A stretch of 40,287 nt of DNA. It comes from Candidatus Jordarchaeia archaeon (GTDB lineage: Archaea > Asgardarchaeota > Jordiarchaeia > Jordiarchaeales > Jordiarchaeaceae). This document shows positions 8,334 to 24,257 of this stretch, piece after piece. Where the stretch lies: assembly GCA_029856435.1 (NCBI GenBank), contig JAHQXB010000100.1:1-40287 (forward strand), given 5' to 3'. Numbering within the stretch: the stretch's first letter is position 1; the number at the start of each line of letters is the position of its first letter. Below the pieces are notes generated by a model. That model was not told the DNA's origin. It ran no database searches and was given only the letters and a program-made list of their open reading frames with translations. Position numbers and translations under genes: made by a program.

Positions 8334-9692
8334 CTAAAAATTTGAGCCCACTTGGAATATTTGATAAGCGCTGTAGGGTTCTCGATCGGTTATCTCTCCA
8401 CACAGGTTGGTGGTCATTTGTTCGTATATTTCCTTCATGTTTTTTGTGTGCCCTAAGACGTAGATTAGTTTTACATAGGCGGTTTCGGGCAACATGTTTT
8501 TGCAAGGAATAACTCCAATTTTAAGGAGGTCTCTTCCCCGCTCATACACGTTCATACCTACGAATCCAAAGAGGCACTGGGAAGTCATGGCTATAGGGAT
8601 ACCTTCCTCCACTGCCCTTTTTAAAGGTTCTATAATTGTTTTGGGGCAGTGTCCCAAACCAGTTCCTGCTAAAACAATTCCATGATAATCTAAGTCTATG
8701 AGTTTATGAATAATGTCGCCATTCATTCCGGGATACGTGTATATTAGCGCCACTCTAGGGTCAAGTTGGGTGTCTAATTTAACTTCGCCTTTCTTTTTTC
8801 TTTTCCGGTAATCCTTTCTAATTATTTTTATTTCATTGTCTTTCACCAGTCCTATGGGAATATCTGCAATTGTGCGAAAAGCATCCCGCCTGCTGGTGTG
8901 CATCTTTCTAACTCGAGTACCTCTATGAATCAAATTATAGTCGTCGCTACTACTCCCATGCATACAGACAACCACTTCAGCTATGTCACTGAACGCAGCC
9001 ACCCTAGCCGCAGAGATTAAGTTTATCGCCGCATCACTTGAGGGGCGGTCACTGCTCCTCTGGCTGCCAACTAGAACTACTGGGACTGGTAAATCCTTTA
9101 ACATAAAGGATAGTGCTGATGAAGTGAAATGCATGGTATCGGTGCCGTGGGGAATGAGGATACCGTCTGCACCCGAGTTTATTTCTTTGGCAGCAGTTTC
9201 CGCAATTTTTATCCATTTGTCTGGTGTCATGTCTTCGGAAAATATTTCGAATAAAAGTTTTGTTTTCAGATTGCAGATTTCTGCAAGTTCGGGAACCGCA
9301 CTAAAAAGTTCTTGTGGAGTAAAAGCGGGAATAACAGCTCCAGTTCTGTAATCAAGTCTACTTGCCACTGTTCCGCCGGTGCCAATTAAAGAGACATTGG
9401 GTTTCTTGGGATCAAATTCCACTTGTATTTCGGGGATAGCGTAAAGGCCTGGCTTGTAGCCTAATTCTTTAATTTTTGTGTCTTCTGTGACTCTCACACC
9501 TATATTGTATCCAGTATCTAGTTTGAGTACTAGGTGCTTATCATCACCCATATCGCTTCTTGGGAGTAGTATCCCTCTATATGTTGCTTCGGGGGTAATT
9601 ACTTCGATTTCGCTCCAAATTCTAACTTTAGCGATCTCAAGTTTTTTCCTAACAAATCCCCAGTATCCTTGCAGCTCCTCCTTCACCGTCAT
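8334..9692 (-). CDS. gatD: Glu-tRNA(Gln) amidotransferase subunit D
   Basis: KLDTGYNIG, TGGTVASRLDY, HGTDTM and GSQRSSDRPSSD motifs; overlaps the gatE stop. Confidence 0.97.
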   Translation of the reverse strand: MTVKEELQGYWGFVRKKLEIAKVRIWSEIEVITPEATYRGILLPRSDMGDDKHLVLKLDTGYNIGVRVTEDTKIKELGYKPGLYAIPEIQVEFDPKKPNVSLIGTGGTVASRLDYRTGAVIPAFTPQELFSAVPELAEICNLKTKLLFEIFSEDMTPDKWIKIAETAAKEINSGADGILIPHGTDTMHFTSSALSFMLKDLPVPVVLVGSQRSSDRPSSDAAINLISAARVAAFSDIAEVVVCMHGSSSDDYNLIHRGTRVRKMHTSRRDAFRTIADIPIGLVKDNEIKIIRKDYRKRKKKGEVKLDTQLDPRVALIYTYPGMNGDIIHKLIDLDYHGIVLAGTGLGHCPKTIIEPLKRAVEEGIPIAMTSQCLFGFVGMNVYERGRDLLKIGVIPCKNMLPETAYVKLIYVLGHTKNMKEIYEQMTTNLCGEITDREPYSAYQIFQVGSNF

Positions 9693-11644
9693 TGTTTTCC
9701 CTCCAATATTTTTGCTATTTTTTTACGAAGAACTTCAGCTACTATTTTTCCATCAATTTTGCCTCTTACCTTTTCCATCACTTTGCCCATCATAGGGCTA
9801 AACGCCCTATCCCCACTTTTTTCTATAAAGTCACGGCTCTCATAGAGCACCTCATCAATTATTTTTTCAAGTTTCTCAACCGTAATGGTTTCCAACCCTA
9901 ATTCTTTAAGGGCGTCACTAACACTAATTGAGGGGGATTTCGCTAGTTCTTGTAGAATGTTTTCCAATGCTTCTTTTGCTATTTTTCCTTCTGAAATAAA
10001 TTTGAAAACATCTTTAATTTTTTCTTCGGAGATATTGTCTGTTTGGAAGCCCTCCCTCTCCAGAGATTTCATAGTTTGAAGCAAGGTTACAACAACAATT
10101 GTTGGATCTATTTTATATTTCTCGACGATGCCCATAAACAATTCCATTTTCCCTGACGCCATCAATTCTTCTACGAACTCTTCATTTATCTTGTACTTTT
10201 CAGCAAGGCGTTTCTGAGCCACCCAAGGATATTCAGGTAACCTCTTACTAATTGCTGCAACCCTTTCCTTTTCTATGACCAATGGGGGAGTATCTGTATC
10301 GGGATATAAACGCGCCCCACCATGCAACTCTCTTAAAAATTCGCTGTTACCATTTTCTAACGCTCTCCTAGTTTCCCTCATTACACCCTTCAGGGCGCCC
10401 TTAGCCCTATCCACAACAGTCTCCAAGGCCTTTTCCGCCATATCCGCATCACCTATAACAATTGCGTAAGCATCTATTTCCCCTAGTGCAAGAAGATTAC
10501 GTATCTGGGAGTTCTCCTCTGCACTGATGTTATATTTGCTGAGGTTTTCATCAGAATGAATGATGCCTTTTAAACCAGTGATTATCATAACTTTCTCTGC
10601 AATTTCTTTTCCAAAACTCTTCCCTGGCTGAATCTCTTTAGATAAAAGTCCCGCGAATTTTGGAAGTTTTACTGCTAATACGATTTCGTTAGCCTTCCTA
10701 TTTTTGATAATATTGCATTTGGTGGAGGCGAAAACCTGGGAAACGTTCTTAAAATCTTTAGAAAAGTCAGTTTCCTTCACACCACGATTCAACAACTGAT
10801 TCTTAATATCAATTAGTGCAAGTTGTCTCAGTACTTCATTCTCAGCCAGTTTAGGTATCCAATCCAATTTTTGTACTCCTTTAATTTCCACACGCTCTCC
10901 ACCCTCTATACTCACATTTAAATCCTGCCTAATGGTTCCAAGCCCCCTCTTAACCTTCCCTGTCGCCCTGAGAAGCATTCCTATCCTGTAAGCTACTTTG
11001 AGAAGCTCTTCTGGATTCTTAATTTCAGGCGCCGTAACAACTTCAACCAGAGGGATGCCTAATCTATCAACCCTGTAATAAACAGTGCTTTGCTCCTCAC
11101 GGATTTTCCTAGCCGCATCCTCCTCTATACAAATAGTGGCTACTCCAACCTTCCCACCATTAATTGGAATATAGCCCTCTGTTCCAATAATTAATGTACG
11201 CTGAAATCCACAAGGAACTGACCCGTCAAGATAATTTTTACGAAGGACATGTAACTCGTCTATAATCTTTGCATTAAACAATAGGGCAATCTCTATACCT
11301 ATATCTATTGCTTCCTGAGATATGCTAAAAGGAGGAGTTTAATGCTTGTATGCATTCTACATACAAGTTTCATCTATCTCGTAAGTACAATTAACATCAT
11401 CATATACTTCATAAACAATTGTACGCCCCTTTTCATACTCAACAAGCATTGCCTCGTCATACTTACCCATCTCGCCCAAAACAGGTCTAAAGAATCTTTT
11501 AACCAGAAACTGTGGTTCATCGGTCTTCAGAACAGGTTTACAGAAGCAAAAAAGTTTGCGACTGGTTAAAAGCTCCTGGTGAATCTCGACTCCGGCCTTG
11601 AATCCCAGTTTATCATAGTCGAGTTGTATTGCGACCACCTCCAT
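9689..11644 (-). CDS. gatE: Glu-tRNA(Gln) amidotransferase subunit E, intron-containing: join(11644..11369, 11338..9689), about 640 aa
   Basis: The two ORF-track pieces (GFKAGVEIHQ...YEIDE and ...RKNYLDGSVPCGFQRT) are in the same frame. Removing 30 nt gives YEIDE-TPPFSISQEAI, matching the GatE DExPP motif. Start is ATG 11644 or ATA 11629. Confidence 0.93.
11339..11368 (-). other. 30-nt BHB/BHL-type mRNA intron in gatE
   Basis: Pre-mRNA GAUG AA^A CUUGUAUG-UAGAAUG-CAUACAAG CAUU AA^A CUCC: 4-bp central helix, two 3-nt AAA bulges, perfect 8-bp inner stem, in-frame UAG and UAA inside. Confidence 0.88.
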
Positions 11645-11818
11645 TTTTGGAGTTTTTAAATTATTAGTAGATTGTAGCAATACTAATAATACCCTTTACC
11701 TCATAAGAATGTATCATTCTAAAAACATTTTCCTTAGAAAAATTCAAAGTATTTATAACTAATTTTATAACTTAGTCAAATTGACACCCTAATTATTAGC
11801 AAAAGGTGATAAAAATTC

Positions 11819-13426
11819 TTGAAGACACCAGAACCCTCTCAAATATGGAGAACGGCAGCTTACAGCGAAATAATTAATCAAATTCTAAATAATAAGGAAA
11901 AAGGCTTAGAGCTAAACATATTGAAAAAAAGGGTTTGCCAAAAGTACCACCTAGATAAGGTTCCCAGTAACTCAGAAATTCTCAGTTACGCCTCAGAACA
12001 GGAAAGACAACTTTTACTACCCTTACTTCAGAAAAAGAAGGTACGTACAATTTCAGGTATTGCAGTAGTAGCGGTAATGTCCAAGCCTGCCCCCTGCCCC
12101 GGCAAATGCATCTACTGTCCGGGTGGTACTATTGCACCAAAGTCCTACTCGGGACAAGAGCCTGCAGCTATGAGAGCTATTCAAAATAACTTTGACCCAT
12201 ACTTACAAGTGAAAGCCCGACTCGAACAGCTAAAAGCCATAGGTCACAAAGTGGACAAGGGAAAAATTAAGCTAATAGTGATGGGGGGAACTTTTCTCTC
12301 TCTCCCACAAGATTATCAACACTATTTTGTACGTAGATGCCTTGAGGCAATAACTGGCGTCCCCTCTGAAACTTTGGAGGAAGCAAAAAGAGACGCTGAG
12401 CATTCCCACATAAGAAATGTAGGAATAACCTTCGAGACCAGACCCGATTATTGTAGAGAAGAAAATGTTGACAATATACTTAATATGGGTGGCACCCAAG
12501 TTGAGATAGGTGTTCAAACAGTTTATGATGATATTTACAAGCTTGTTAACAGGGGCCACACAGTACAAGAGGTGGTGAAGGCCTTCAGGATAGCTAAAGA
12601 TGCGGGCCTTAAAGTAACAGCACACTTAATGCCAAATCTCCCGGGAACCAATTATGAGAGAGATTTGGATATGTTTAAAACTGTTTTTAATGATCCGAGG
12701 TTTAAGCCAGACGGCCTCAAGATCTATCCCTGTTTGGTGCTTAAAGATACACCTCTCTATGATTTATACCTTAAAGGGGAGTATAGCCCTTACCCCACGG
12801 AAGACGTTATAAAGCTCATTGCTGAAGTCAAAAGAATAATTCCAAAATGGATACGTATCCAACGCATTCAGAGGGATATCCCCTCGAAATTAATTGTCTC
12901 AGGTGTAAAAAGCGGTAATCTAAGAGAACTAGTTGCTGACGAACTAAAAAGAAGAGGGTATAAGTGCCAGTGTATTAGATGCAGAGAAGTGGGCCATATA
13001 TTAAGAAAAAATAATAATATTTTAGATGTGGACGAGGTAGTTTTGCACACCGAGAGATACTCCGCTTCTGAAGGCGAAGAAGTTTTCATATCCTACGAAG
13101 ATAAGGACAGAAATATATTAGTTGGATTTTTAAGACTACGCCGCCCCTCACCTTTAGCCCATAGGCCAGAGATTCAGAATTGTGAATCAATGATTATTAG
13201 AGAATTACACGTCTACGGTCCACTAGTACCCGTCCGTGAAAAACCAAATGATGAGTGGCAACACCGAGGATACGGCAAAAGGTTACTTAGTTTAGCAGAA
13301 AAAATTGCTAGAGAGGAATACGATGCCAAAAAAATTCTAGTCCTCTCCGGCGTAGGTGTTAAAGAGTACTATTATAAACTAGGATACAAACCAGACGGAG
13401 TCTACGTTTCAAAAATGTTAAATTAA
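11819..13426 (+). CDS. elp3: tRNA uridine(34) acetyltransferase Elp3 (radical SAM + GNAT)
   Basis: CPGKCIYCPGG, MGGTF, ETRPD, IRELHVYG and WQHRGYG motifs; TTG start after GGTGA. Confidence 0.96.
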   Translation: MKTPEPSQIWRTAAYSEIINQILNNKEKGLELNILKKRVCQKYHLDKVPSNSEILSYASEQERQLLLPLLQKKKVRTISGIAVVAVMSKPAPCPGKCIYCPGGTIAPKSYSGQEPAAMRAIQNNFDPYLQVKARLEQLKAIGHKVDKGKIKLIVMGGTFLSLPQDYQHYFVRRCLEAITGVPSETLEEAKRDAEHSHIRNVGITFETRPDYCREENVDNILNMGGTQVEIGVQTVYDDIYKLVNRGHTVQEVVKAFRIAKDAGLKVTAHLMPNLPGTNYERDLDMFKTVFNDPRFKPDGLKIYPCLVLKDTPLYDLYLKGEYSPYPTEDVIKLIAEVKRIIPKWIRIQRIQRDIPSKLIVSGVKSGNLRELVADELKRRGYKCQCIRCREVGHILRKNNNILDVDEVVLHTERYSASEGEEVFISYEDKDRNILVGFLRLRRPSPLAHRPEIQNCESMIIRELHVYGPLVPVREKPNDEWQHRGYGKRLLSLAEKIAREEYDAKKILVLSGVGVKEYYYKLGYKPDGVYVSKMLN

Positions 13427-13551
13427 ACCGCTTTATTTTCTTTAGAGAATCCTTTGCAACACCCTTATCTTTAGTATCTTTGCTTTACATCAGCTCTTAA
13501 GGAGAAAGGTTCTTCTACCAATTTTCACTGTGCCACGGGCAAAAAAGGTAT

Positions 13552-13920
13552 TCACTTTAGCTCAGACACTTTTTTCGCTATGTCATTAATCAAGTCCTTC
13601 GCATTTCCCGGATCAATTATACTTGCAGCCGCAGAGGGAACATCTATACCTGCAGCAATGCCAATCTGTTCTTTGCTATGAACATACACATAGGGAATTT
13701 TCTTTTCTTCACATAGCAATGGCAAATGTGCTACTACTTCGGGAGGATCTACATCCTCCGCTAAAATAACTAATTTAGCTTGCCCACGTTCAATGGTCTT
13801 AGTCGTCTCATTTGTGCCCTTTTTAATCTTACCGGTATCACGCGCAATCTCCAATGCTTGCAAAGCCTTTTTAACTAGTTCTTCTGGAACTTGAAATCTC
13901 ACATAAAAGGGCTTCGACAA
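13552..13920 (-). CDS. rpl7ae: 50S ribosomal protein L7Ae
   Basis: [11 protein letters not shown] and [21 protein letters not shown] motifs; TTG start after GGAGG. Confidence 0.98.
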
Positions 13921-13928
13921 CAGTCATT

Positions 13929-13954
13929 CCTCCTTCAGGCAGCGCCCTCATCAT
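13929..13954 (-). promoter_or_regulatory. Box C/D-like (K-turn/K-loop) motif abutting the SD of rpl7ae
   Basis: Minus strand AUGAUGA-GGGCGCUGC-CUGA-AGGAGG, 9 nt before the TTG; the C-stem is weak. Confidence 0.5.
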
Positions 13955-14096
13955 ATGTGGTAGGGCTTCGCTTTTTTGATTTTTAATGAGAAACAAGTTA
14001 ACATATTTGGCTTATGAAATTTTTGGTTTAGGAGCGCTTTTCACAAACTTAAAGTTGAACCTCATCCCTTATTCAGTTGATTTTTCTCAGAAATAG

Positions 14097-14612
14097 TTAA
14101 TCAGACAAGAATTTAAGAACCTCGTTAAATGCAATTTTAAACCACACAGTATATTTTTCGGGATGCTTTTCCACGTTTTCTTTGAGGGCTTTCACATTCA
14201 CCCATTTATAATCTTCTGCCTCCATTGGATTTACTTCAACTTTTCCATCATAATTACCAACAAAAACATGATCAAACTCATATTCCATAAGATTATGATC
14301 AAGATTAGCCTTATATACAAAGGCGAATATTTTTTTCAAATCACAATCAAAGCCCATTTCTTCTTTTAGTCTTCTGTGAGCAGCTTGTTCCGTGTCTTCG
14401 CCAGGTCTCGGATGACTACAACAAGTATTTGACCACAGACCACCAGAATGATATTTACTTTTAGCTCGTTTTTGGAGAAGAGTTTCTCCCTTGGAGTTGA
14501 AAACAAATATGGAAAAAGCGCGGTGTAATCTCCCTTCTTCGTGTATTCTCATCTTTTCCCCAGTACCTACCTCGTTATCATTCTGATCCACAAGAATTAC
14601 CATTTCACTCAT
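14097..14612 (-). CDS. idi: Isopentenyl-diphosphate delta-isomerase, type 1 (Nudix fold)
   Basis: LHRAFSIFVFN, LLQKRAKSKYHSGGLWSNTCCSHP and EYEFDHVF motifs. Confidence 0.95.
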   Translation of the reverse strand: MSEMVILVDQNDNEVGTGEKMRIHEEGRLHRAFSIFVFNSKGETLLQKRAKSKYHSGGLWSNTCCSHPRPGEDTEQAAHRRLKEEMGFDCDLKKIFAFVYKANLDHNLMEYEFDHVFVGNYDGKVEVNPMEAEDYKWVNVKALKENVEKHPEKYTVWFKIAFNEVLKFLSD

Positions 14613-14790
14613 ACACCTTGCCTCCTATCTACACTTTTCTAAATCATTCTTTGATTATGGGGAAGTTTTACTGCTAAAATATATTTTATTATTTTTGAAT
14701 CTGTTATTTCATCATCATCTTGTTTTAAATCTCTCTTTTTGTTTATCTCAGGCCTTTGCTTGCCAGCCTTAAATCCTGAGATAATTTAAC

Positions 14791-15597
14791 TCATCTCTGG
14801 TTGAATATAAGTGTTCCTAAATCCTGTTTGCCAAGTAGAGATTGGAGAATGTAACCATCCCTTTTTGCATTAATTATTTCTATTTGAATTCCTTTTTGAG
14901 CTAAGGGTAAGACCTCCAATATTTTGCGGTGCATACCCCCTGTAACATCGGTTGTTTTGGATCCCGAAATGTTTTGTAGGGTTTTTTCGATGTTATCTGT
15001 AGTGATTGAACGGATTAATACCGCGCTTCTATTTGTGTTGGGATCAGAATCAAATACTCCATCCACATCTGTTCCAAAAACCACACGTTTAACATTTAAG
15101 TTCTGCGCCAAAAATGCCACAATGTGATCGCCAGATAATATACTATGGCCTTGTTTTTCATCAAAAACTGCATCACCCCACAGCACCGGTATACAACCCA
15201 TATCCAAAGCAAATTTCACAGTTTTAGTATAAATTTCTGATATTTTACCACCGCTCTGAATAGAAATTGCGGAAGGTTGCAGCGGTATGGCAGGCAATCC
15301 CAAGCTTTGGAGTTCCTCTACAAGTATAAAATTTAGTTTACGCATAACCTGAATGGTTTTAGTGAACCCAAATATTTGGTTTCTAGACTTCAAACCCAGA
15401 TGAATATTGTACTTATTTGCAATCCTATGTCCGAACGATCCCCCTCCATGAACTAGAACTAACTTCAAATCAGGACTCTGTTTCAAGGCGCTCTCAATTT
15501 CCCTACTAATTCTCTTAATGGTTTTAAAATCAGCTTGCATCTCCCTATCTTTTTTTGTAATAACGCTACCACCCAACTTAAGTATAACAGAACTCAT
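14791..15597 (-). CDS. ipk: Isopentenyl phosphate kinase
   Basis: ILKLGGSVIT, VHGGGSFGH, SGD and DVTGGM motifs; follows mvk. Confidence 0.92.
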   Translation of the reverse strand: MSSVILKLGGSVITKKDREMQADFKTIKRISREIESALKQSPDLKLVLVHGGGSFGHRIANKYNIHLGLKSRNQIFGFTKTIQVMRKLNFILVEELQSLGLPAIPLQPSAISIQSGGKISEIYTKTVKFALDMGCIPVLWGDAVFDEKQGHSILSGDHIVAFLAQNLNVKRVVFGTDVDGVFDSDPNTNRSAVLIRSITTDNIEKTLQNISGSKTTDVTGGMHRKILEVLPLAQKGIQIEIINAKRDGYILQSLLGKQDLGTLIFNQR

Positions 15598-15713
15598 CAA
15601 AACCTCTCCCTGAAACAATTATTTTCCATTCAGCACACCTAATTTGCGAAGATATTTCTGACTCCAAAATAACTGTAGAAAGTAAACTATCCTTATTTTA
15701 TACAGATAAATTT

Positions 15714-16673
15714 CTATTCTACTTTTACTCCCTGGTGTGAAAAGTTGGTAATAATGGGTTTACCTCCCGCTTTTAATATAGCATCCGCTATTTGTTTCTG
15801 TTTATCCTCTGAGGAAAGAGCGATCATACAGCCTCCTCCGCCCGCGCCTGTTAACTTTGCGCCATATGCTCCATTCTCTCTAGCGGTATTTATTAGTTTG
15901 TTAAGCTCAAAAGTGGATACTCCAATTGCTTCTAGCAACCCCTGGTTGATATCCATTAATTCTCCAAGTGCGTGAAAATCATTCTTGTCTAAAAGTTTTA
16001 GGCTTTCCATAACAATGAGCCCAATCGATTTAATAATTGGCTTCATTATTTTTTCCTGTCTTTGCTTTCTTAACTTTACCTTTCCAACCCACTCTGCAGT
16101 GCTCCTTTTTATACCTGAGTCCCCAATCACAAGAGGAATTTCGGTTTTTATTTTAACCTGCTTCATATTCCCCTTCTCGTAAAGTATTGCGCCACCATAG
16201 GTTGCAATTGTGTTGTCGATCCCAGAAGGAGTTCCATGAACGGTTTTTTCAGCTCCAAAGGCTATACTTGAAATTTCAGAGTTTGATAGATCTAGGTCCA
16301 GACAAGCACTCACAGCCGCAGCAGTAGCTACAGAAACCGCCGCAGAAGAACCCAACCCAGCGCCCGGAGGTATCTCTGATTTTATTGAAATATCGAAGCC
16401 TTTATGTAAGCTAGTTAGAGAAGAAATCTCCTTACAAACAGTCCATACTGGTTTGAAAATTTGGGGTAAATGGGGAGGAGGATGACTTTTATCAATTTTA
16501 AACTTTGCCGCCTGATCATATTCTTTTGAGTAAACTCGAGATATTTTCTCGTCACTCAAATTAACAGATACATAAACACGTTTATCTATAGAAGCCACTA
16601 AAGCGGGCTCACCGTAGACAACAGCATGTTCACCGAAAAAAATAACCTTTCCGGGCGCAGAGGCGGTCACCAT
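15714..16673 (-). CDS. mvk: Mevalonate kinase
   Basis: APGKVIFFGEHAVVYG, PPGAGLGSSAA, HGTPSGID and KLTGAGGGG GHMP motifs. Confidence 0.96.
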   Translation of the reverse strand: MVTASAPGKVIFFGEHAVVYGEPALVASIDKRVYVSVNLSDEKISRVYSKEYDQAAKFKIDKSHPPPHLPQIFKPVWTVCKEISSLTSLHKGFDISIKSEIPPGAGLGSSAAVSVATAAAVSACLDLDLSNSEISSIAFGAEKTVHGTPSGIDNTIATYGGAILYEKGNMKQVKIKTEIPLVIGDSGIKRSTAEWVGKVKLRKQRQEKIMKPIIKSIGLIVMESLKLLDKNDFHALGELMDINQGLLEAIGVSTFELNKLINTARENGAYGAKLTGAGGGGCMIALSSEDKQKQIADAILKAGGKPIITNFSHQGVKVE

Positions 16674-16758
16674 GCTTAACACACCCATAATTAGACGCCA
16701 CAGGCCCTCTAAAAATTGTTACTATCCAATTAAAATTTAAAATAATAATTAGCACTCA

Positions 16759-17370
16759 TCACTGTCTCCTAACTTTGGCTTCAAATTCTTCTACAGAAAC
16801 GGGTAGCTGCCCGTCGGGTGGAATTTCTCCTCTCTCCCTGAGAACTTGCCGAGCTAATAGCCAGTATATTAGAGAGAGAGCTCTACGCCCCTTGTTATTG
16901 CTTGGAATTACCAAATCAATATTCGCAGTAGAATTATCGGTATCGCATAAAGCAACAACTGGAATTCTAGCCTTGGCTGCCTCACTCAAGGCCTGTGAAT
17001 CAGCCCTGGGATCAGTAAGCATTATAACATCGGGCTCTATATATTTGTCGAAAGACGGATTAGTGAATGTTCCCGGAATGAATCTTCCCGCAATTGTATT
17101 AGCATGAATTATGCTGCTAAACTTGCGTACAGGTCTTTGACCATACTGTCTAGCGGACACAACGGCTATTCGGGCAGGTTCAAATCTTGCTAAAAAGCGA
17201 CCGCCAATTCTTATTCTCTCATCTGTTTTTCGGATGTCGAGAACATAAAGTCCATCAGACCTCACTCGGTAGATGAAGGGCTCCATGCTCTTCGTTTTGA
17301 CCTGAGTTCCAATATGGACACCCGCAGCTAGATACTTATCCAATGGGATTAGCAGTTCCGGCTCAGACAT
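16759..17370 (-). CDS. rps2: 30S ribosomal protein S2 (uS2)
   Basis: [20 protein letters not shown] and [10 protein letters not shown] motifs. Confidence 0.98.
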
Positions 17371-17446
17371 TACTTAACACGCTCTAAATTGCGATTTGAT
17401 TTTGATGTCTAGTCAAATAAATTTTAAACCTAAAAATTTTGTGGAT

Positions 17447-17647
17447 TTAGGTATGTTGACTAAAGGGAATTACATCATCAATCAGATTAACATGACTTAG
17501 CAACATACGTCTACAACAATACCTTGTAAGGCCCATACTAGTTAAAACGGCATCGGGCGGCTCTCCTTGTCTTACTCTCCTAAGAAACTCTTCCCATTTG
17601 TCTCCTACTACTTTTCCACATGTAAAGCATCTTATGGGTATTATCAT
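17447..17647 (-). CDS. rpoN: RNA polymerase subunit N (Rpo10)
   Basis: [12 protein letters not shown]...RYCCRRMLL; start reassigned to ATG 17647 after GGTGA. Confidence 0.97.
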
Positions 17648-17792
17648 AAATCCAATCACCATTAAAAATTTAGGAATGCTCAGACTTCCCAAGCACACAA
17701 GATTATATATAGCTTACCACATTAACATTATTTGGTTTATAAGCGAATAAGTTTGAAGACCTCCATAATTTTCTCATCCTAGGGTGGGATGG

Positions 17793-18203
17793 TTACCTAT
17801 AACTTTTTTGTTCTTTTGCTCGGGCGCCCCTTCCTCCAGGTTTCTTAGGTTCCTTCCGTCTTGGGTCTGAAACTAGAATTTTTCTGTCATACTCTAAAAG
17901 TTTTTGTCTTATTTGAGGATCATCGAAATACTGAGTTAAGGCCTTCGAGATGGAGGTTCTAGCTGCTTCCGCTTGGCTAATCACTCCTCCACCCTTCACA
18001 GTAACATCTATGTCAACTTTGTTATATAAATCAGGGCCTACAAGGATTAAGGGTTCCAGTACTTTTTGGCTAGCTAGAAGTGGTTGCATTAGTTTAATGG
18101 GGATGTTATTAACTCTAATTTTTCCCGTACCAGGTTTTAAGACCGCCCTAGCTATTGCATTTTTTCTTTTTCCACTTGTTAATATTACCACTTTTTTACT
18201 CAA
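17793..18203 (-). CDS. rps9: 30S ribosomal protein S9 (uS9)
   Basis: SGKRKNAIARA, VKGGGVISQAEA and QKSYR C-terminus. Confidence 0.98.
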   Translation of the reverse strand: MSKKVVILTSGKRKNAIARAVLKPGTGKIRVNNIPIKLMQPLLASQKVLEPLILVGPDLYNKVDIDVTVKGGGVISQAEAARTSISKALTQYFDDPQIRQKLLEYDRKILVSDPRRKEPKKPGGRGARAKEQKSYR

Positions 18204-18219
18204 TATTACTCCTCCAAGA

Positions 18220-18750
18220 TTAGATTCTATTAGATGGAGGGAACCACCCTATTTCTCTGGAAAGTGTTTCTATTGTAATGTAGCTAGAGTCCGTTTTTTT
18301 GACATGCGCATCAGTAATTGTTTGAGCGGAAACTTGGCTGTAAAATTCAGGGGTTCCTATGTAAACTCTCAGACGTTTATAGGCTGCTTTTCCTTTAGGT
18401 TTCTTCCAAGGAAGCATGCCCCGGATGGTACGTTTAACTATCCTATCAGGTCTACGGTAATGAAAAGGCCCCTTCCAAGGGGCGGTATGTGTTCTGATTT
18501 CTAATCTCGATTTATATTTAGATATGACTGCGCTTCTCTTACCAGTAATTACCGCTTTTTCAGCGTTGATAATCGCTATTTTTTCGCCTCTTAGTAGGCG
18601 ATTAGCAACCACACTCGCTAACCTTCCAAGAATTAGGTTAGTAGCATCGATTACAGCCAAATTTTCGATTGGCAAATAGTCTCTGTTCTTCTTTTCCTTT
18701 GGTTTCTTTATAGTTTCTTCCAATTTAACCTCTTTTCCTTCTTCTGACAT
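18220..18750 (-). CDS. rpl13: 50S ribosomal protein L13 (uL13) with charged N-terminal extension
   Basis: IDATNLILGRLAS and KRTIRGMLP motifs; start 18750 or 18759. Confidence 0.97.
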   Translation of the reverse strand: MSEEGKEVKLEETIKKPKEKKNRDYLPIENLAVIDATNLILGRLASVVANRLLRGEKIAIINAEKAVITGKRSAVISKYKSRLEIRTHTAPWKGPFHYRRPDRIVKRTIRGMLPWKKPKGKAAYKRLRVYIGTPEFYSQVSAQTITDAHVKKTDSSYITIETLSREIGWFPPSNRI

Positions 18751-18763
18751 TTCGCTCACTCGT

Positions 18764-19129
18764 CTATTTGATTATTTTCACCTTAGTACCGGAAGGGTTT
18801 CTTTTAATGAGTTCTTGAATGGTTATACATTCTCCTCCAGATTTTTTAGTTTTGTTGACAGCCTCTTCAGAGAAGGACAATGCTGCTATGCAAACCTTAT
18901 GTTCTAGCTCTCCTGAACCTAAAACCTTTCCGGGCACTAAAACAGTGTCATCATTGACTGTGTGTCTATTAATTTGGGACAAGTTTACAGAGGTTCTTTT
19001 CCTTCTAGGTTTTCTTAACTCTTCTGAGACTCTTTTCCATATCTTACTTTTCTCTGATTTTGATTTTTTCTCGAGTTCAACTATTAGTTTCCAAACTTCT
19101 GGATTTGTGGGTCCTGTTGTTTTAGGCAA
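18764..19129 (-). CDS. rpl18e: 50S ribosomal protein L18e
   Basis: VNLSQINR and VPGKVLGSG motifs; TTG at 19129 follows GGAGG (ORF-track start at 19219 overlaps rpoD). Confidence 0.95.
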   Translation of the reverse strand: MPKTTGPTNPEVWKLIVELEKKSKSEKSKIWKRVSEELRKPRRKRTSVNLSQINRHTVNDDTVLVPGKVLGSGELEHKVCIAALSFSEEAVNKTKKSGGECITIQELIKRNPSGTKVKIIK

Positions 19130-19178
19130 CTTTTGGCCTCCGCTCTTTATTGTATCTTTCGAAGCAAATATGGGCTTT

Positions 19179-19973
19179 TTAGGCGAGCAGTGATTGAAGT
19201 TGCTTAACCTTTTTCTCAAATATTTCTATAGCAGTTTCTACAATTTTTTCTGGAGGGAGCGCACCGGTAGATTCGATACTAAATATGAAGGAGGAGTCAT
19301 CCGCATCAACGTGAATGGCGTCAAATTCACATTTTTCTTCACATGACTTACACAGAGAACAATTTAAAACATCCTTAATCACAATTGATTTATTTTTCAG
19401 ATCCAAAACACCTTTTGGACAAATTGTTACGCATTCACCACAAGCTTCACATTTATCTCCCTCAAGTTGAACAATGGGCTTGTACTTGTAAGCACATGTA
19501 GAAACCGGTTGGTATTTTGCATGGTCTTTACCTTGGCCAAGAGAAGCGTAAGCTTCCAGCACTATACGTTGCCCCCGAGCCAAACGAACAATTGGGATTT
19601 TATCACTAACGGGAACTACTGAAGGATTTTGAGATTTCAAGTCTCCAGAATAAACCGTCACACCTTCCTCTTCCGCCTCCCTCTCAAGCGTGAAAGTTAG
19701 CTGACACTGTGTGCAACCAGCTCCCTGACAACTGCATTCTTCCGGTAAAACATAATTCTCTAAATCGGTCTTAAGAGGAATGAGACCCAAACGGTGTGCA
19801 AGAATTTCATCGAACAGCGGAGACGTATTCTCAATAATAATGACTTCTTCGATAGCCATAGTTGGCACTTCGGCTAAGATAATACGCCTTAAGGCATTGG
19901 CAAACGCTACATCAACATTTTCAAGCAGGAACCTTAGATAATTCGTGTCCTTAGATAATATTCGTATATTCAT
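19179..19973 (-). CDS. rpoD: RNA polymerase subunit D (Rpo3) with ferredoxin-like domain
   Basis: ANALRRIILAEVPTMAI, LAHRLGLIP, HAKYQP and two CxxCxxCxxxC motifs. Confidence 0.97.
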   Translation of the reverse strand: MNIRILSKDTNYLRFLLENVDVAFANALRRIILAEVPTMAIEEVIIIENTSPLFDEILAHRLGLIPLKTDLENYVLPEECSCQGAGCTQCQLTFTLEREAEEEGVTVYSGDLKSQNPSVVPVSDKIPIVRLARGQRIVLEAYASLGQGKDHAKYQPVSTCAYKYKPIVQLEGDKCEACGECVTICPKGVLDLKNKSIVIKDVLNCSLCKSCEEKCEFDAIHVDADDSSFIFSIESTGALPPEKIVETAIEIFEKKVKQLQSLLA

Positions 19974-20113
19974 AATCACACCAACGAACTAAATCAAAGT
20001 TAATAAAAATGATGCTCAACGTTATTAAGCATAAGTACACAACATATGAAATTATAATATAAAGGTACTTGGTCTACACTTAGGATTCTCGAGCTGAAAT
20101 AAATAACTGATTT

Positions 20114-20515
20114 TTAGACCCTCCGACCACGTCGACCTCCCGGTCTACGTGTGCCGTCATGTGGATATGGAGTTACCTCTTCGATTCGCCCAATTCTCAA
20201 TCCAGCCCTAGCCAAGGCACGTATCGCTGCTTGAGCCCCCGGCCCCGGTGTTTTGGGACCATGTCCACCCGGTGCTCTGACATAAATGTGTATTGCTGTG
20301 ATACCCTTATCCATAGCTGCTTGTGCTGCCCTGTAAGCTGCTTGCATAGCAGCGTAGGGAGAGGACTCGTCCCGATCAGCTTTTACAATCATACCTCCTG
20401 AGTAGCGCGCGATTGTTTCGGCACCGGAAATGTCCGTTATGTGAACTATGGTATCGTTATAAGAGGAGTATATGCGAGCAATACCCCAGTGAGGTTTTTT
20501 GGATTTTTCGCTCAT
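20114..20515 (-). CDS. rps11: 30S ribosomal protein S11 (uS11)
   Basis: [10 protein letters not shown] and GGRRGRRV motifs. Confidence 0.98.
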
Positions 20516-20542
20516 TTTTCATTCCCCTTAATTCAAATATTA

Positions 20543-21070
20543 TCATCCTTCAACTTTAGTTTTGACGCGTTCAGGATGGTTGGGGTCGCTTAGCGGTGAA
20601 GAAGGGGCGAAGGACACCAAACTCTCTTCCTCTCTAGTTACTAAGTATCCCGGCGAAGTTACGCGTCTATTATCTATTGCTATGTGTCCATGTGTTATAA
20701 GTTGCCTTGCATGATAAATGGATTTGGACAACCCCAACTTATTGACTATTGTCTGTAACCTCCTACCTAATAAATCTTCAATGTTAAGTTTGAGAACATC
20801 ATCCAAGGAAGCTTCAAGATTTAGTATCCCTAAATGGTGAAGTCTTCCCACCAATAATTTCCTTGATTTTTCTTGTTCCTCGTCGGGAAGGGCAAGGCAG
20901 CGTCTAGCCTGATCCCTAAAGTTGCTGAGCATTGTGCTTGCGCGCCAAATCTCTCTCTTATTCCTTAAACCATACTTACCTATGAGAATTAGTTCACTGT
21001 GTATTCTATCCTTCTGGAAAGGATGCCTTGGAGTCTTGTACTTCTTTCTATGTTTCTTAGGATCGCCCGT
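20543..21070 (-). CDS. rps4: 30S ribosomal protein S4 (uS4); probable ACG start (alternative GTG 21079)
   Basis: GDPKKHRKKY, YGLRNKREIW, RRLQT and ARQLITHGHI motifs. Confidence 0.96.
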   Translation of the reverse strand, partial: TGDPKKHRKKYKTPRHPFQKDRIHSELILIGKYGLRNKREIWRASTMLSNFRDQARRCLALPDEEQEKSRKLLVGRLHHLGILNLEASLDDVLKLNIEDLLGRRLQTIVNKLGLSKSIYHARQLITHGHIAIDNRRVTSPGYLVTREEESLVSFAPSSPLSDPNHPERVKTKVEG

Positions 21071-21086
21071 TTCAATCACCTCAAGT

Positions 21087-21539
21087 CTACTTTTTCTTTC
21101 TCCTTACACCCACGGTTTGACCTTTACGTCCCGTAGTTTTGGTGTGCTGTCCTCTTACCTTGAGTCCTAAGGCGTGACGTATACCCCTGTAACTCTTCAT
21201 TTTTCTCATATCATCAATGTCTGTTTTAATGGCTAAAGTGAGATCAGAACCAGTGAGATGTAAATATTCACCAGAACTTACGTCCTTCTGTCGATTAACC
21301 ATCCATTTAGGAATACCATATTTTACGGGGTTGGCCAAAACCTCCTCAATTTTTCTAACATCTTGTTCCGAAATAAACCCCATTCTAATGTTAGGATCAA
21401 GCCCGACTACCCGTATTATGGACTCCGCTAACCTAATGCCCACTCCTTTAATTCCAGTCAAAGCATAGGCTAGCTTTTTTGAACCGTCCAAATCTGTACC
21501 AGCAACTCGAACAAGATAACGGTACTCTTCCGACGACAA
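21087..21539 (-). CDS. rps13: 30S ribosomal protein S13 (uS13)
   Basis: LTGIKGVG and YRGIRHALGLKVRGQHTKTTGR motifs. Confidence 0.98.
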   Translation of the reverse strand: MSSEEYRYLVRVAGTDLDGSKKLAYALTGIKGVGIRLAESIIRVVGLDPNIRMGFISEQDVRKIEEVLANPVKYGIPKWMVNRQKDVSSGEYLHLTGSDLTLAIKTDIDDMRKMKSYRGIRHALGLKVRGQHTKTTGRKGQTVGVRRKKK

Positions 21540-21765
21540 TTGTAAACACTCCTTATTAGGGAATCAAAAACAACAAAACACCAAATAAACTTTACGTACA
21601 GCGTTTAACAGCAGAAAATAGTAAAACCACTAAAAAAATAAATATATCGCCCATTTTCACAGAAAACAAATAAATACCCTAAGAACTTTAAACTAAAAGG
21701 TAGCTAAAATTCACAAAAATTGAGAAAAATGTTAAAATGAAGATGCCGGGGTAACCAAGTGGATC

Positions 21766-21783
21766 ACGTTACAGGCGTACAAA
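21766..21783 (+). other. tRNA intron 1 in the D-loop (18-19 nt; boundary uncertain)
   Basis: Removal is needed to restore the ACC/GGT D stem; best BHB-like fold has central TGGA/TACA (one mismatch) and inner CG/CG. Confidence 0.6.
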
Positions 21784-21793
21784 AACGGTGCAG

Positions 21794-21818
21794 ATACTTA
21801 TTAATGTAGTTAGCACAA
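21794..21818 (+). other. tRNA intron 2 at position 29/30 (25 nt)
   Basis: Central helix GTGC/GCAC, bulges AG^A and AA^G; removal gives CAGGC. Confidence 0.85.
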
Positions 21819-21826
21819 GCCTGGAG

Positions 21827-21838
21827 AATACACTAGTA
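21827..21838 (+). other. tRNA intron 3 at canonical position 37/38 (12 nt)
   Basis: Central helix CTGG/CTAG, bulges AG^A and TA^A; no inner helix. Confidence 0.85.
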
Positions 21839-21872
21839 AGCCTGTGGTCCGAAAGGATCGCGCGAGTTCGAA

Positions 21873-21900
21873 AGGAAAATACTTATTATTTACCCGAGTG
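21873..21900 (+). other. tRNA intron 4 at position 59/60 in the T-loop (28 nt)
   Basis: Outer helix GCGAG/CTCGC, central TTCG/CGAG, bulges AA^A and TG^T; removal restores TTCGAAT. Confidence 0.9.
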
Positions 21901-21991
21901 TCTCGCCCCCGGCGCCAATAACTACTCCTTTCAGTGGCCGGAACATATTTTGACTTCCTAAAACTAGTTAGGAATAACTGGATTCGGATGC

Positions 21992-23042
21992 TTATCCCTC
22001 AGTTTCCTCGCTTCTATCATGTTTTTTCCACATAGGAGGGTAGGTTCCCGGCTCCATTAAGACACGGTTTATTTCCACCACAACCCCATGGTTTGAGGCG
22101 TACATTTCTTGACTGCTCATTTTTGCTATTCCCAATGCTACAGCTTCATTTTTAAGCGTGAAGATTGAAACTAGATCACCAGCTTTTATCTCACTCTCTA
22201 GTTTAACTATTCCAGGAGCGGTTAGATTTGCGCCGTGACAAAGAGAATCTACGGCAGAGTCTCGTATAAAAATTTTAGGTATATGCTCCAGTGCATTTTC
22301 CATTGGTTGGATAATTTTTCTAAGGAATGATTCGTCTCCATCTTCCTTCCAGAAATGGTAAGCATCAACGAGGTCGTATAGGTTTGTTATAGTATCTTCT
22401 TTAAAAGGCCCTGTTCGGGTGCGTCTAAGTTCTCTCATGTGGGCGCCACAACCTAAAACCTCACCAATGTCGTGGCAGAGCTTTCTTATGTAGGTGCCGG
22501 CCTCACAACCAACACGCAAGAGCCCATTTCTACCCTCTAATTCATTTAGTTCAATATAATATATTTCCCTAATCCTCACCCTCCTTTTAACCGAGGAGCG
22601 AAGCGGTGGACGTTGATAAATTTGTCCCGCAAACTCGTTTACAACTTCTCTCAATCTACTTTCAGACACATCCCCGTGCAGCCGAATTACACAAACATAC
22701 TCTTTCCCAGCCGGAAGAAGAGCTTGAACTACTTTAGTTGCAGATTCTAAAGCCACAGGAAGCACACCAGTGACTTTGGGATTTCACTGCCCCCTATGCT
22801 TCTGAAGGAAGCTCTAGTGTCCCAGCGTGGCCTGCCTTCTTAACATTTAAGATTTTTTTGACCCAGCTAACCACTTCATGCGAGGTGGGACCCGGAGGCT
22901 TGTCAACATTGACTATCCCGTTTTTTATATAATCTTCTATTTGACGTTCGTTGGGTGGAGTTCCATACTCCGGACTAGTGACCGCGTTAGCCTTCTGGAG
23001 TATCTCTCTTTTCTTGTCGCTGGGTAAAAAACGCTCGACCAT
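21992..23042 (-). CDS. cbf5: H/ACA RNP pseudouridine synthase Cbf5 (TruB family), intron-containing: join(23042..22814, 22782..21992), 339 aa
   Basis: Spliced junction restores [15 protein letters not shown]; [12 protein letters not shown] and [12 protein letters not shown] motifs; C-terminal PUA domain. Confidence 0.95.
22783..22813 (-). other. 31-nt BHB mRNA intron in cbf5
   Basis: GGGA CACU AG^A GCUUCCU-UCAGAAGCAU-AGGGGGC AGUG AA^A UCCC: canonical BHB; frameshifting and contains UAG. Confidence 0.93.
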
Positions 23043-23448: not shown

Positions 23449-23991
23449 TTAGGAGGACGAGGCAATATATTCTTCTACCACTGTCTTTAAAATCTTTACT
23501 ATAGAATCAAGCGACCACAAATCGGTATTAATTATCACGTCAAAAATTGAGTGGTCATCAATGTTAATGTTATAAATTTTTTTAAATCTCTCCTTTTCAC
23601 TCTTCTCTCTAGCAAGAGTTTCTTCTAAAGCCTCCTCATAAGACTTATTATCCCTTTTGGCTAATCTTCTGACCCTTACTTCGAGTGGGGCGGTCAGTAA
23701 TATCTTTATATCAGCATACTCTTGTGCCATCCAGGCGCTCAAACGAGCATCAATAATTACGTTTCCTTTTTTTGCCACCTTAATAGTTTCCTCATCAATC
23801 TGACGATCTATCTCAGGATTATTCTCGACATAGGAGCTAAATTCTTCTAGACTCATACCTTTCTCTTTGGCTAAACGACGGAAAATTTCTCCCGAAGAAA
23901 CGTATCTTAAATTAAAGATTTCAGCTAAGAGCTTGGCACAGGCAGATTTACCCACGCCATGCTCCCCGCTAATTGTTATAACAATACCCAC
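23449..23991 (-). CDS. cmk: Cytidylate kinase (archaeal type)
   Basis: P-loop ISGEHGVGKS, SSGEIFR and DARLSAW motifs; conserved position after L34e. Confidence 0.93.
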   Translation of the reverse strand: MGIVITISGEHGVGKSACAKLLAEIFNLRYVSSGEIFRRLAKEKGMSLEEFSSYVENNPEIDRQIDEETIKVAKKGNVIIDARLSAWMAQEYADIKILLTAPLEVRVRRLAKRDNKSYEEALEETLAREKSEKERFKKIYNINIDDHSIFDVIINTDLWSLDSIVKILKTVVEEYIASSS

Positions 23992-24257
23992 TACTCGTTG
24001 CCCCTAACACTAATCTTATAAAACGATTTTAAACATCTAGAGCAGAGGTACCCACCATAAGGCCTGTCTGGTCGCCTCTGAGTCTTCGACTTTAAATGTG
24101 AAACACTTTCACTCCAACATCCCGAAAGAAGCGCGCCGCAGGAAGCACAAACGGGTTTATTAGCCTTCCTTCTGCGATAATGGGTTACAAGTTTCCCACC
24201 TGAAGTTCTAACTTTTTTTCTCAGCATAGATCTGGATCTATATTTTGGACTAGGCAA
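23991..24257 (-). CDS. rpl34e: 50S ribosomal protein L34e
   Basis: PKYRSRS, CASCG and RPDRPYGGYLCSRC motifs; TTG start. Confidence 0.95.
   Translation of the reverse strand: MPSPKYRSRSMLRKKVRTSGGKLVTHYRRRKANKPVCASCGALLSGCWSESVSHLKSKTQRRPDRPYGGYLCSRCLKSFYKISVRGNE

Follow-up and report, generated by a model that had tools for sequence, protein, structure and literature searches.

Predicted bulge-helix-bulge introns in the gatE and cbf5 pre-mRNAs and in a tRNA-Ser(GGA) precursor of a Candidatus Jordarchaeia archaeon

The window analysed here, a stretch of 40,287 nucleotides (nt) from Candidatus Jordarchaeia archaeon, is one whole contig (C73) of a draft metagenome-assembled genome (3.54 Mb, 97.8% complete, 5.7% contamination). 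Three of its genes are interrupted: gatE and cbf5 once each, and a tRNA-Ser(GGA) gene four times; all six interruptions were present where a preliminary description of the sequence had placed them. Very probably, archaeal bulge-helix-bulge (BHB) introns interrupt the pre-mRNAs of gatE and cbf5 as well as the precursor of tRNA-Ser(GGA). This interpretation draws on direct observation of the motifs, of their conservation and covariation, of the exact restoration of the products and of the presence of the enzymes. BHB motifs were found for the gatE and cbf5 introns and for the tRNA introns at positions 29/30, 37/38 and 59/60, but not for the D-loop insert in this clade. When the BHB cutting rule was applied (cleavage between nucleotides two and three of each 3-nt bulge), excision of these five introns restored exactly the conserved product. 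Compensatory changes maintaining the helices, counted by eye and with a script in few and related genomes, were identified for gatE, cbf5, and the D-loop and 29/30 sites of the tRNA. Close relatives of this gatE belonged to Candidatus Freyarchaeota/Jordarchaeia and included the closed chromosome CP147778.1, bearing out the earlier suggestion that the genome might be Asgard (Freyarchaeia/Jordiarchaeia). Coordinates are given in Table 1.

The gatE gene appeared as two open reading frames (ORFs) in the same frame, separated by a 30-nt gap containing TAG and TAA. On the minus strand, the sequence folds as GATG, a first AAA bulge, an 8-bp inner stem with a 7-nt loop, CATT and a second AAA bulge, with GATG/CATT as the central helix; lacking an outer helix, it is of the HBh' form. 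In this genome, motifs at least as strong occur at ~4e-5 of given position/length pairs. With cuts placed behind nucleotide two of each bulge, the product reads ...YEIDE-TPPF..., and in two outgroup Asgard genomes (L018 and L094), from which the insert is absent, ...IDE-TPPF... is continuous and identical to the predicted junction. The Pfam GatB_N profile (positions 2-276) spans the break once the stops are read through. All 11 genomes sampled from the order have the intron at the identical codon (6/6 of the genus and 5/5 of the sister family; families f1 and f2), its length being 29, 30, 31 or 35 nt. Across these relatives the central helix changes from GATG/CATT through GATG/CATC to GACG/CGTC, and the inner stems retain their pairing with wholly unlike sequences. 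The gene is single-copy in the genome, the second match being gatB. No mention of a gatE intron was found in the searchable literature; gatE is a new host for a coding-sequence BHB intron, which has been retained across the whole order.

In cbf5, a 31-nt insert shifts the frame inside the GTL-D-P motif and splits the catalytic Asp codon between its first and second letters, with exon 1 ending ...CTAG and exon 2 beginning ATCCC. Excision joins G to AT, so that the catalytic Asp of GTLDP is regained in a gene of 339 codons. The intron folds with an outer helix GGGA/TCCC, a central helix CACT/AGTG, AGA and AAA bulges and an inner stem, and motifs of this strength occur at about 1e-6 of given position/length pairs in this genome, which has only one cbf5 match. 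In a set of 151 genomes of the phylum, cbf5 was split at the same site in six of the 27 sampled Asgard families, by introns of 17 to 41 nt. The central helix was paired at all four positions in each of the 20 intron-bearing Asgard cbf5 genes examined, from these six families, with both strands variable: the exon strand uses synonymous codons (CACT, CTTT, CTCT, CCTT or CCCT), and the intron strand changes to match. The site may have been used repeatedly because the exon codons already contribute one half of the central helix, and the whole of the outer one. No paper combining Asgard, cbf5 and intron was found in the searchable literature. Separately, cbf5 of four Asgard genomes (G049, G095, G076 and G104) matched in two pieces within one open frame of 836-856 amino acids, an intein-like arrangement.

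The unprocessed tRNA-Ser gene was missed by both ARAGORN and Rfam, which at a permissive threshold returned only a chance small nucleolar RNA match; with the introns removed, ARAGORN called tRNA-Ser(GGA). The assembly holds no uninterrupted copy of the anticodon arm or T arm of this tRNA. The whole gene is common to four genomes of the genus (94-97% identity), differing mainly in the interiors of the introns. The T-loop (59/60) intron is absent from the orthologous genes of two more distant congeners, G005 and G002, which indicates that it was gained recently, within the genus. Both congeners also have a compensatory change in the 29/30 helix, which in G005 reads GCGC/GCGT and includes a T-A to C-G replacement. 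At the D-loop site, GTGG is paired with CCGC or CCAC in G005 and G002, again a compensatory change; in the window's clade it faces CAAA, forming two of four pairs, and the 4-bp helix is lost. The earlier statement that all six interruptions share a 4-bp helix and 3-nt purine-rich bulges thus stands for the helix in five of them, which fold as BHB, and fails for the D-loop insert; bulge composition departs from it in the 37/38 and 59/60 introns, the 3' bulges of which (TAA and TGT) are not purine-rich. Many D-loop deletions of 17-27 nt yielded tRNA-Ser in ARAGORN, a test that does not pin the cut sites. A canonical-looking 16-nt motif lying 7 nt upstream of the D-loop site was rejected, as its use deletes G18G19 and ARAGORN then calls no tRNA-Ser. 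In the whole genome, ARAGORN identified only two uninterrupted tRNA genes and the Rfam tRNA model gave only seven matches. These counts agree with the published near-universal interruption of tRNAs in this lineage, in which 92-95% of tRNA genes carry introns (Valentin-Alvarado 2024, PMC11291895). The present gene also fits a preprint on Asgard tRNAs, according to which ~21-nt D-arm inserts are often without a canonical motif and genes of this lineage contain up to five inserts (Goswami 2026, bioRxiv 10.64898/2026.10.13.758758).

The genome encodes two EndA paralogs, a catalytic alpha and a beta, both from uninterrupted genes. Over its full length the alpha protein aligns with the catalytic alpha of A. 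pernix (E 3e-45). It keeps the Tyr, His and Lys residues, and its crenarchaeal-specific loop is intact, both K44 and R46 being represented by Lys; in beta, Ser replaces the catalytic His, so that only alpha has all three catalytic residues. The predicted EndA type is (alpha-beta)2 with a broad-specificity L1 loop, as anticipated in the preliminary description and as previously described for Asgard (PMC5829648). In the proposed mechanism, this endonuclease would cut each 3-nt bulge behind its second nucleotide, and the RNA ligase RtcB would join the exons. Without splicing, gatE translation would stop after about 95 codons, and cbf5 would be deprived of its catalytic Asp codon and reading frame. 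Judged from their sequences, the three RNAs almost certainly need both EndA and RtcB.

The rtcB gene is present as a single copy and is itself interrupted: in its metal-binding motif, LPD is separated from AHQGYG. Each of the six genomes of the genus has the insert, which measures 30 nt in five of them and shifts the frame in the closed genome (G005, L074), where its length is therefore not a multiple of three. In the sister family, LPD-AHQGYG is unbroken. Introns were also identified in pcm and hypD, these two genes and rtcB having been picked out as candidates by recognisable protein motifs and then checked with Pfam; a break in an HdrC-like ferredoxin gene is a likely further case. The earlier suggestion that split genes elsewhere in the genome may be spliced genes is thus confirmed, by motif and Pfam, for rtcB, pcm and hypD. 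A genome-wide scan for BHB motifs joining two open frames did not exceed its frame-shifted controls, whichever stringency was chosen and whether or not candidates were filtered by codon usage. At ordinary gene junctions, motifs arising by chance outnumber the true cases, and the scan consequently yields no count of mRNA introns. Two picked candidates had no decisive Pfam support: in C24 neither exon had a Pfam match, and in C46 exon 1 matched ferredoxin (Fer4) models and exon 2 had no Pfam match, so that a split was not demonstrated. The six introns of the window had no similar copy elsewhere in the genome, which leaves a recent spread from tRNA introns unsupported.

Table 1. Interrupted genes and their introns. 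Positions are those of the window unless another contig is named.
Feature	Position	Strand	Remarks
gatE exon 1	11369..11644	-	92 codons from ATG at 11644; first start given by the ORF tool is an upstream TTG, 11680
gatE BHB intron	11339..11368	-	30 nt, in frame; contains both TAG and TAA
gatE exon 2	9689..11338	-	549 codons and stop; Pfam GatB_N 47-276, GAD, GatB_Yqey
tRNA-Ser(GGA) gene	21745..21917	+	170 nt (21745-21914) plus encoded CCA; four intervening sequences
D-loop intervening sequence	21765..21785	+	~21 nt; boundaries by congener homology, uncertain by a few nt
tRNA intron 29/30	21794..21818	+	25 nt; central helix GTGC/GCAC, bulges AGA and AAG
tRNA intron 37/38 (canonical site)	21827..21838	+	12 nt; CTGG/CTAG, bulges AGA and TAA, without inner helix
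tRNA intron 59/60 (T loop)	21873..21900	+	28 nt; central helix TTCG/CGAG, with the T stem as outer helix
cbf5 exon 1	22814..23042	-	76 codons and G of Asp codon; Pfam DKCLD
cbf5 BHB intron	22783..22813	-	31 nt, strict hBHBh'
cbf5 exon 2	21992..22782	-	AT of Asp codon, 262 codons, stop; Pfam TruB_N 17-149, TruB_C_2, PUA
rtcB	G000 contig C93: 302-1801 (L063)	-	30-nt BHB intron with in-frame TGA; exon 2 from profile position 21
pcm BHB intron	C109:12093-12124		PCMT profile 3-59 in exon 1, 61-208 in exon 2
hypD BHB intron	C136:1384-1411		exon 2 from profile position 29
HdrC-like ferredoxin gene, likely BHB intron	C49:341-370		break inside second CxxCxxCxxxCP motif

Four points weigh against the interpretation of these interruptions as BHB introns. 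In this clade, the D-loop insert is without a canonical motif and its cut sites are not fixed. The gatE motif is of the relaxed form. The only rtcB gene itself requires splicing, an unexplained chicken-and-egg oddity: as it is the sole copy, the ligase would need its own product in order to be made. Finally, cutting and joining are themselves deduced from sequence.

The preliminary description had gone further, seeing in the stretch a splicing-dependent translation locus, in which introns in tRNA- and rRNA-maturation genes would form a feedback circuit tying translation capacity to splicing capacity. We consider this unlikely. The products of gatE, cbf5 and the neighbouring Elp3 gene do all act on tRNA or rRNA, synteny is maintained within the genus, and the intron in the single rtcB gene is the only hint at feedback. 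Nevertheless, the EndA genes are uninterrupted, and introns are not restricted to enzymes acting on tRNA or rRNA, being carried also by pcm, hypD and the ferredoxin-like gene. The introns also differ in age, that of cbf5 occurring in six families, that of gatE across the order and that of the T loop in part of the genus. Given these different ages and the mixed functions of the host genes, a dedicated locus or feedback circuit is unsupported.

The gene content of the stretch leads to the same assessment. The region at 9.7-24.3 kb contains gatE (-), Elp3 (+), L7Ae, a NUDIX protein, an amino-acid-kinase-fold gene, a GHMP kinase, S2, RpoN, S9, L13, L18e, RpoD, S11, S4, S13, tRNA-Ser and cbf5, together with L14e, cmk and L34e, assigned by eye from their translations only. 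It is the ordinary archaeal ribosomal-protein/RNA-polymerase cluster S13-S4-S11-RpoD-L18e-L13-S9-RpoN-S2, with mvk, ipk, L7Ae and Elp3. That gatE, cbf5 and tRNA-Ser lie near one another reflects only their membership of this conserved translation-gene cluster; such introns are common in the genome. In a genome of another Asgard family (G016:C67:85774-87383; L009, L028), a tRNA-Ser-like match adjoins an intron-less cbf5, indicating that the tRNA-Ser/cbf5 adjacency predates the genus. In agreement with the earlier remark that the other genes of the window show no comparable interruption, a strict BHB scan of the window identified no additional interrupted gene, relaxed motifs not being exhaustively covered; a candidate at 23976-24013 was merely the L34e/cmk gene junction. 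The NUDIX-domain gene (14100-14612, -), previously noted as a possible type-1 IDI, lies downstream of the GHMP-kinase and amino-acid-kinase genes. In archaea, this gene position is often occupied by a type-2 isopentenyl pyrophosphate isomerase.

It is far less probable still that ribosomes translate or bypass the inserts, by recoding of stops with pyrrolysine or selenocysteine, read-through or programmed frameshifting. Selenocysteine machinery has been reported for the lineage (PMC11291895) and the gatE insert of G005 and G002 has a single TAG, but that of the window also has a TAA, and the lengths of 29, 31 and 35 nt make read-through translation impossible in the relatives concerned. The cbf5 insert, of 31 nt, splits the codon for a catalytic residue and, more generally, the RNA helices covary whereas the would-be peptides do not. 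Pseudogenes or assembly artefacts are an equally implausible explanation: the genome is a metagenome-assembled draft with some contamination, but the inserts recur in genomes that were assembled independently, one of them a closed chromosome, the exons are strongly conserved (96-98% protein identity), and the genome has no second gatE or cbf5.

With BHB introns as the preferred explanation, we lean towards a broader view, in which mRNA maturation in the Jordiarchaeales (Freyarchaeia/Jordarchaeia) would have come to depend routinely on tRNA-type splicing, for many unrelated protein genes, including rtcB. The cbf5 intron, at the identical nucleotide in Asgard and Crenarchaeota, would either predate the split of these groups or have been inserted repeatedly at the site GGG ACN NTA GAY CCN, which supplies half of the motif. 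If this is true, and whichever origin applies to cbf5, close relatives of eukaryotes have enzyme-spliced mRNA introns needing the same ligase as eukaryotic XBP1-type splicing. The findings also bear on the question of how protein genes could have contained introns in the absence of a spliceosome, before it arose. The present analysis adds gatE, which is essential and serves Gln-tRNA formation, as an order-wide intron host; it also adds several Asgard families in which cbf5 has its classic intron, at exactly the nucleotide known before. Taken with rtcB, pcm and hypD, these two genes provide evidence that the tRNA machinery commonly splices mRNAs in this Asgard lineage. There is also a consequence for annotation, as such genes are called split or truncated.

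Watanabe reportedly described a BHB intron in cbf5 pre-mRNA of Crenarchaeota in 2002. The only BHB introns of archaeal mRNAs that we found in the searchable literature were this one, in coding sequence (cbf5, Crenarchaeota), and one case in a 5' untranslated region. The latter is the intron of the Haloferax volcanii HVO_1309 mRNA, at the publication of which, in 2020, cbf5 was counted as the only other mRNA case (Schwarz 2020, PMC7714728). HVO_1309 likewise concerns an mRNA cut by the tRNA splicing endonuclease, as predicted here. Its intron lies in the untranslated leader, whereas those of gatE and cbf5 interrupt the coding sequence, making the protein dependent on splicing. The closest likeness is with cbf5 of the Desulfurococcales and Sulfolobales (Yokobori 2009, PMC2738675), in which the intron also separates letter one of the catalytic Asp codon from letter two: gene, nucleotide, strict BHB form and size range are all shared, and the distribution is patchy, with intron-less relatives, in Asgard and Crenarchaeota alike. 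The difference lies in the host phylum, which is Asgard (6/27 sampled families) and not Thermoproteota. For the endonuclease, the resemblance to the (alpha-beta)2 EndA of A. pernix (PDB 3P1Z; PMC3241643) extends over the alignment of alpha, the specific loop with two basic residues and a beta without catalytic His; the present enzyme is the predicted Asgard orthologue. Heavily interrupted tRNAs of this lineage are already published: those of Freyarchaeia and Atabeyarchaeia (PMC11291895; 10.64898/2026.10.13.758758), like those of Thermoproteales, have several introns per gene at non-canonical sites, as here, and ~21-nt D-arm inserts devoid of a canonical motif are a further shared trait. The tRNA-Ser gene differs from them in nothing essential and constitutes one further example, with the 59/60 intron as a gain within the genus.

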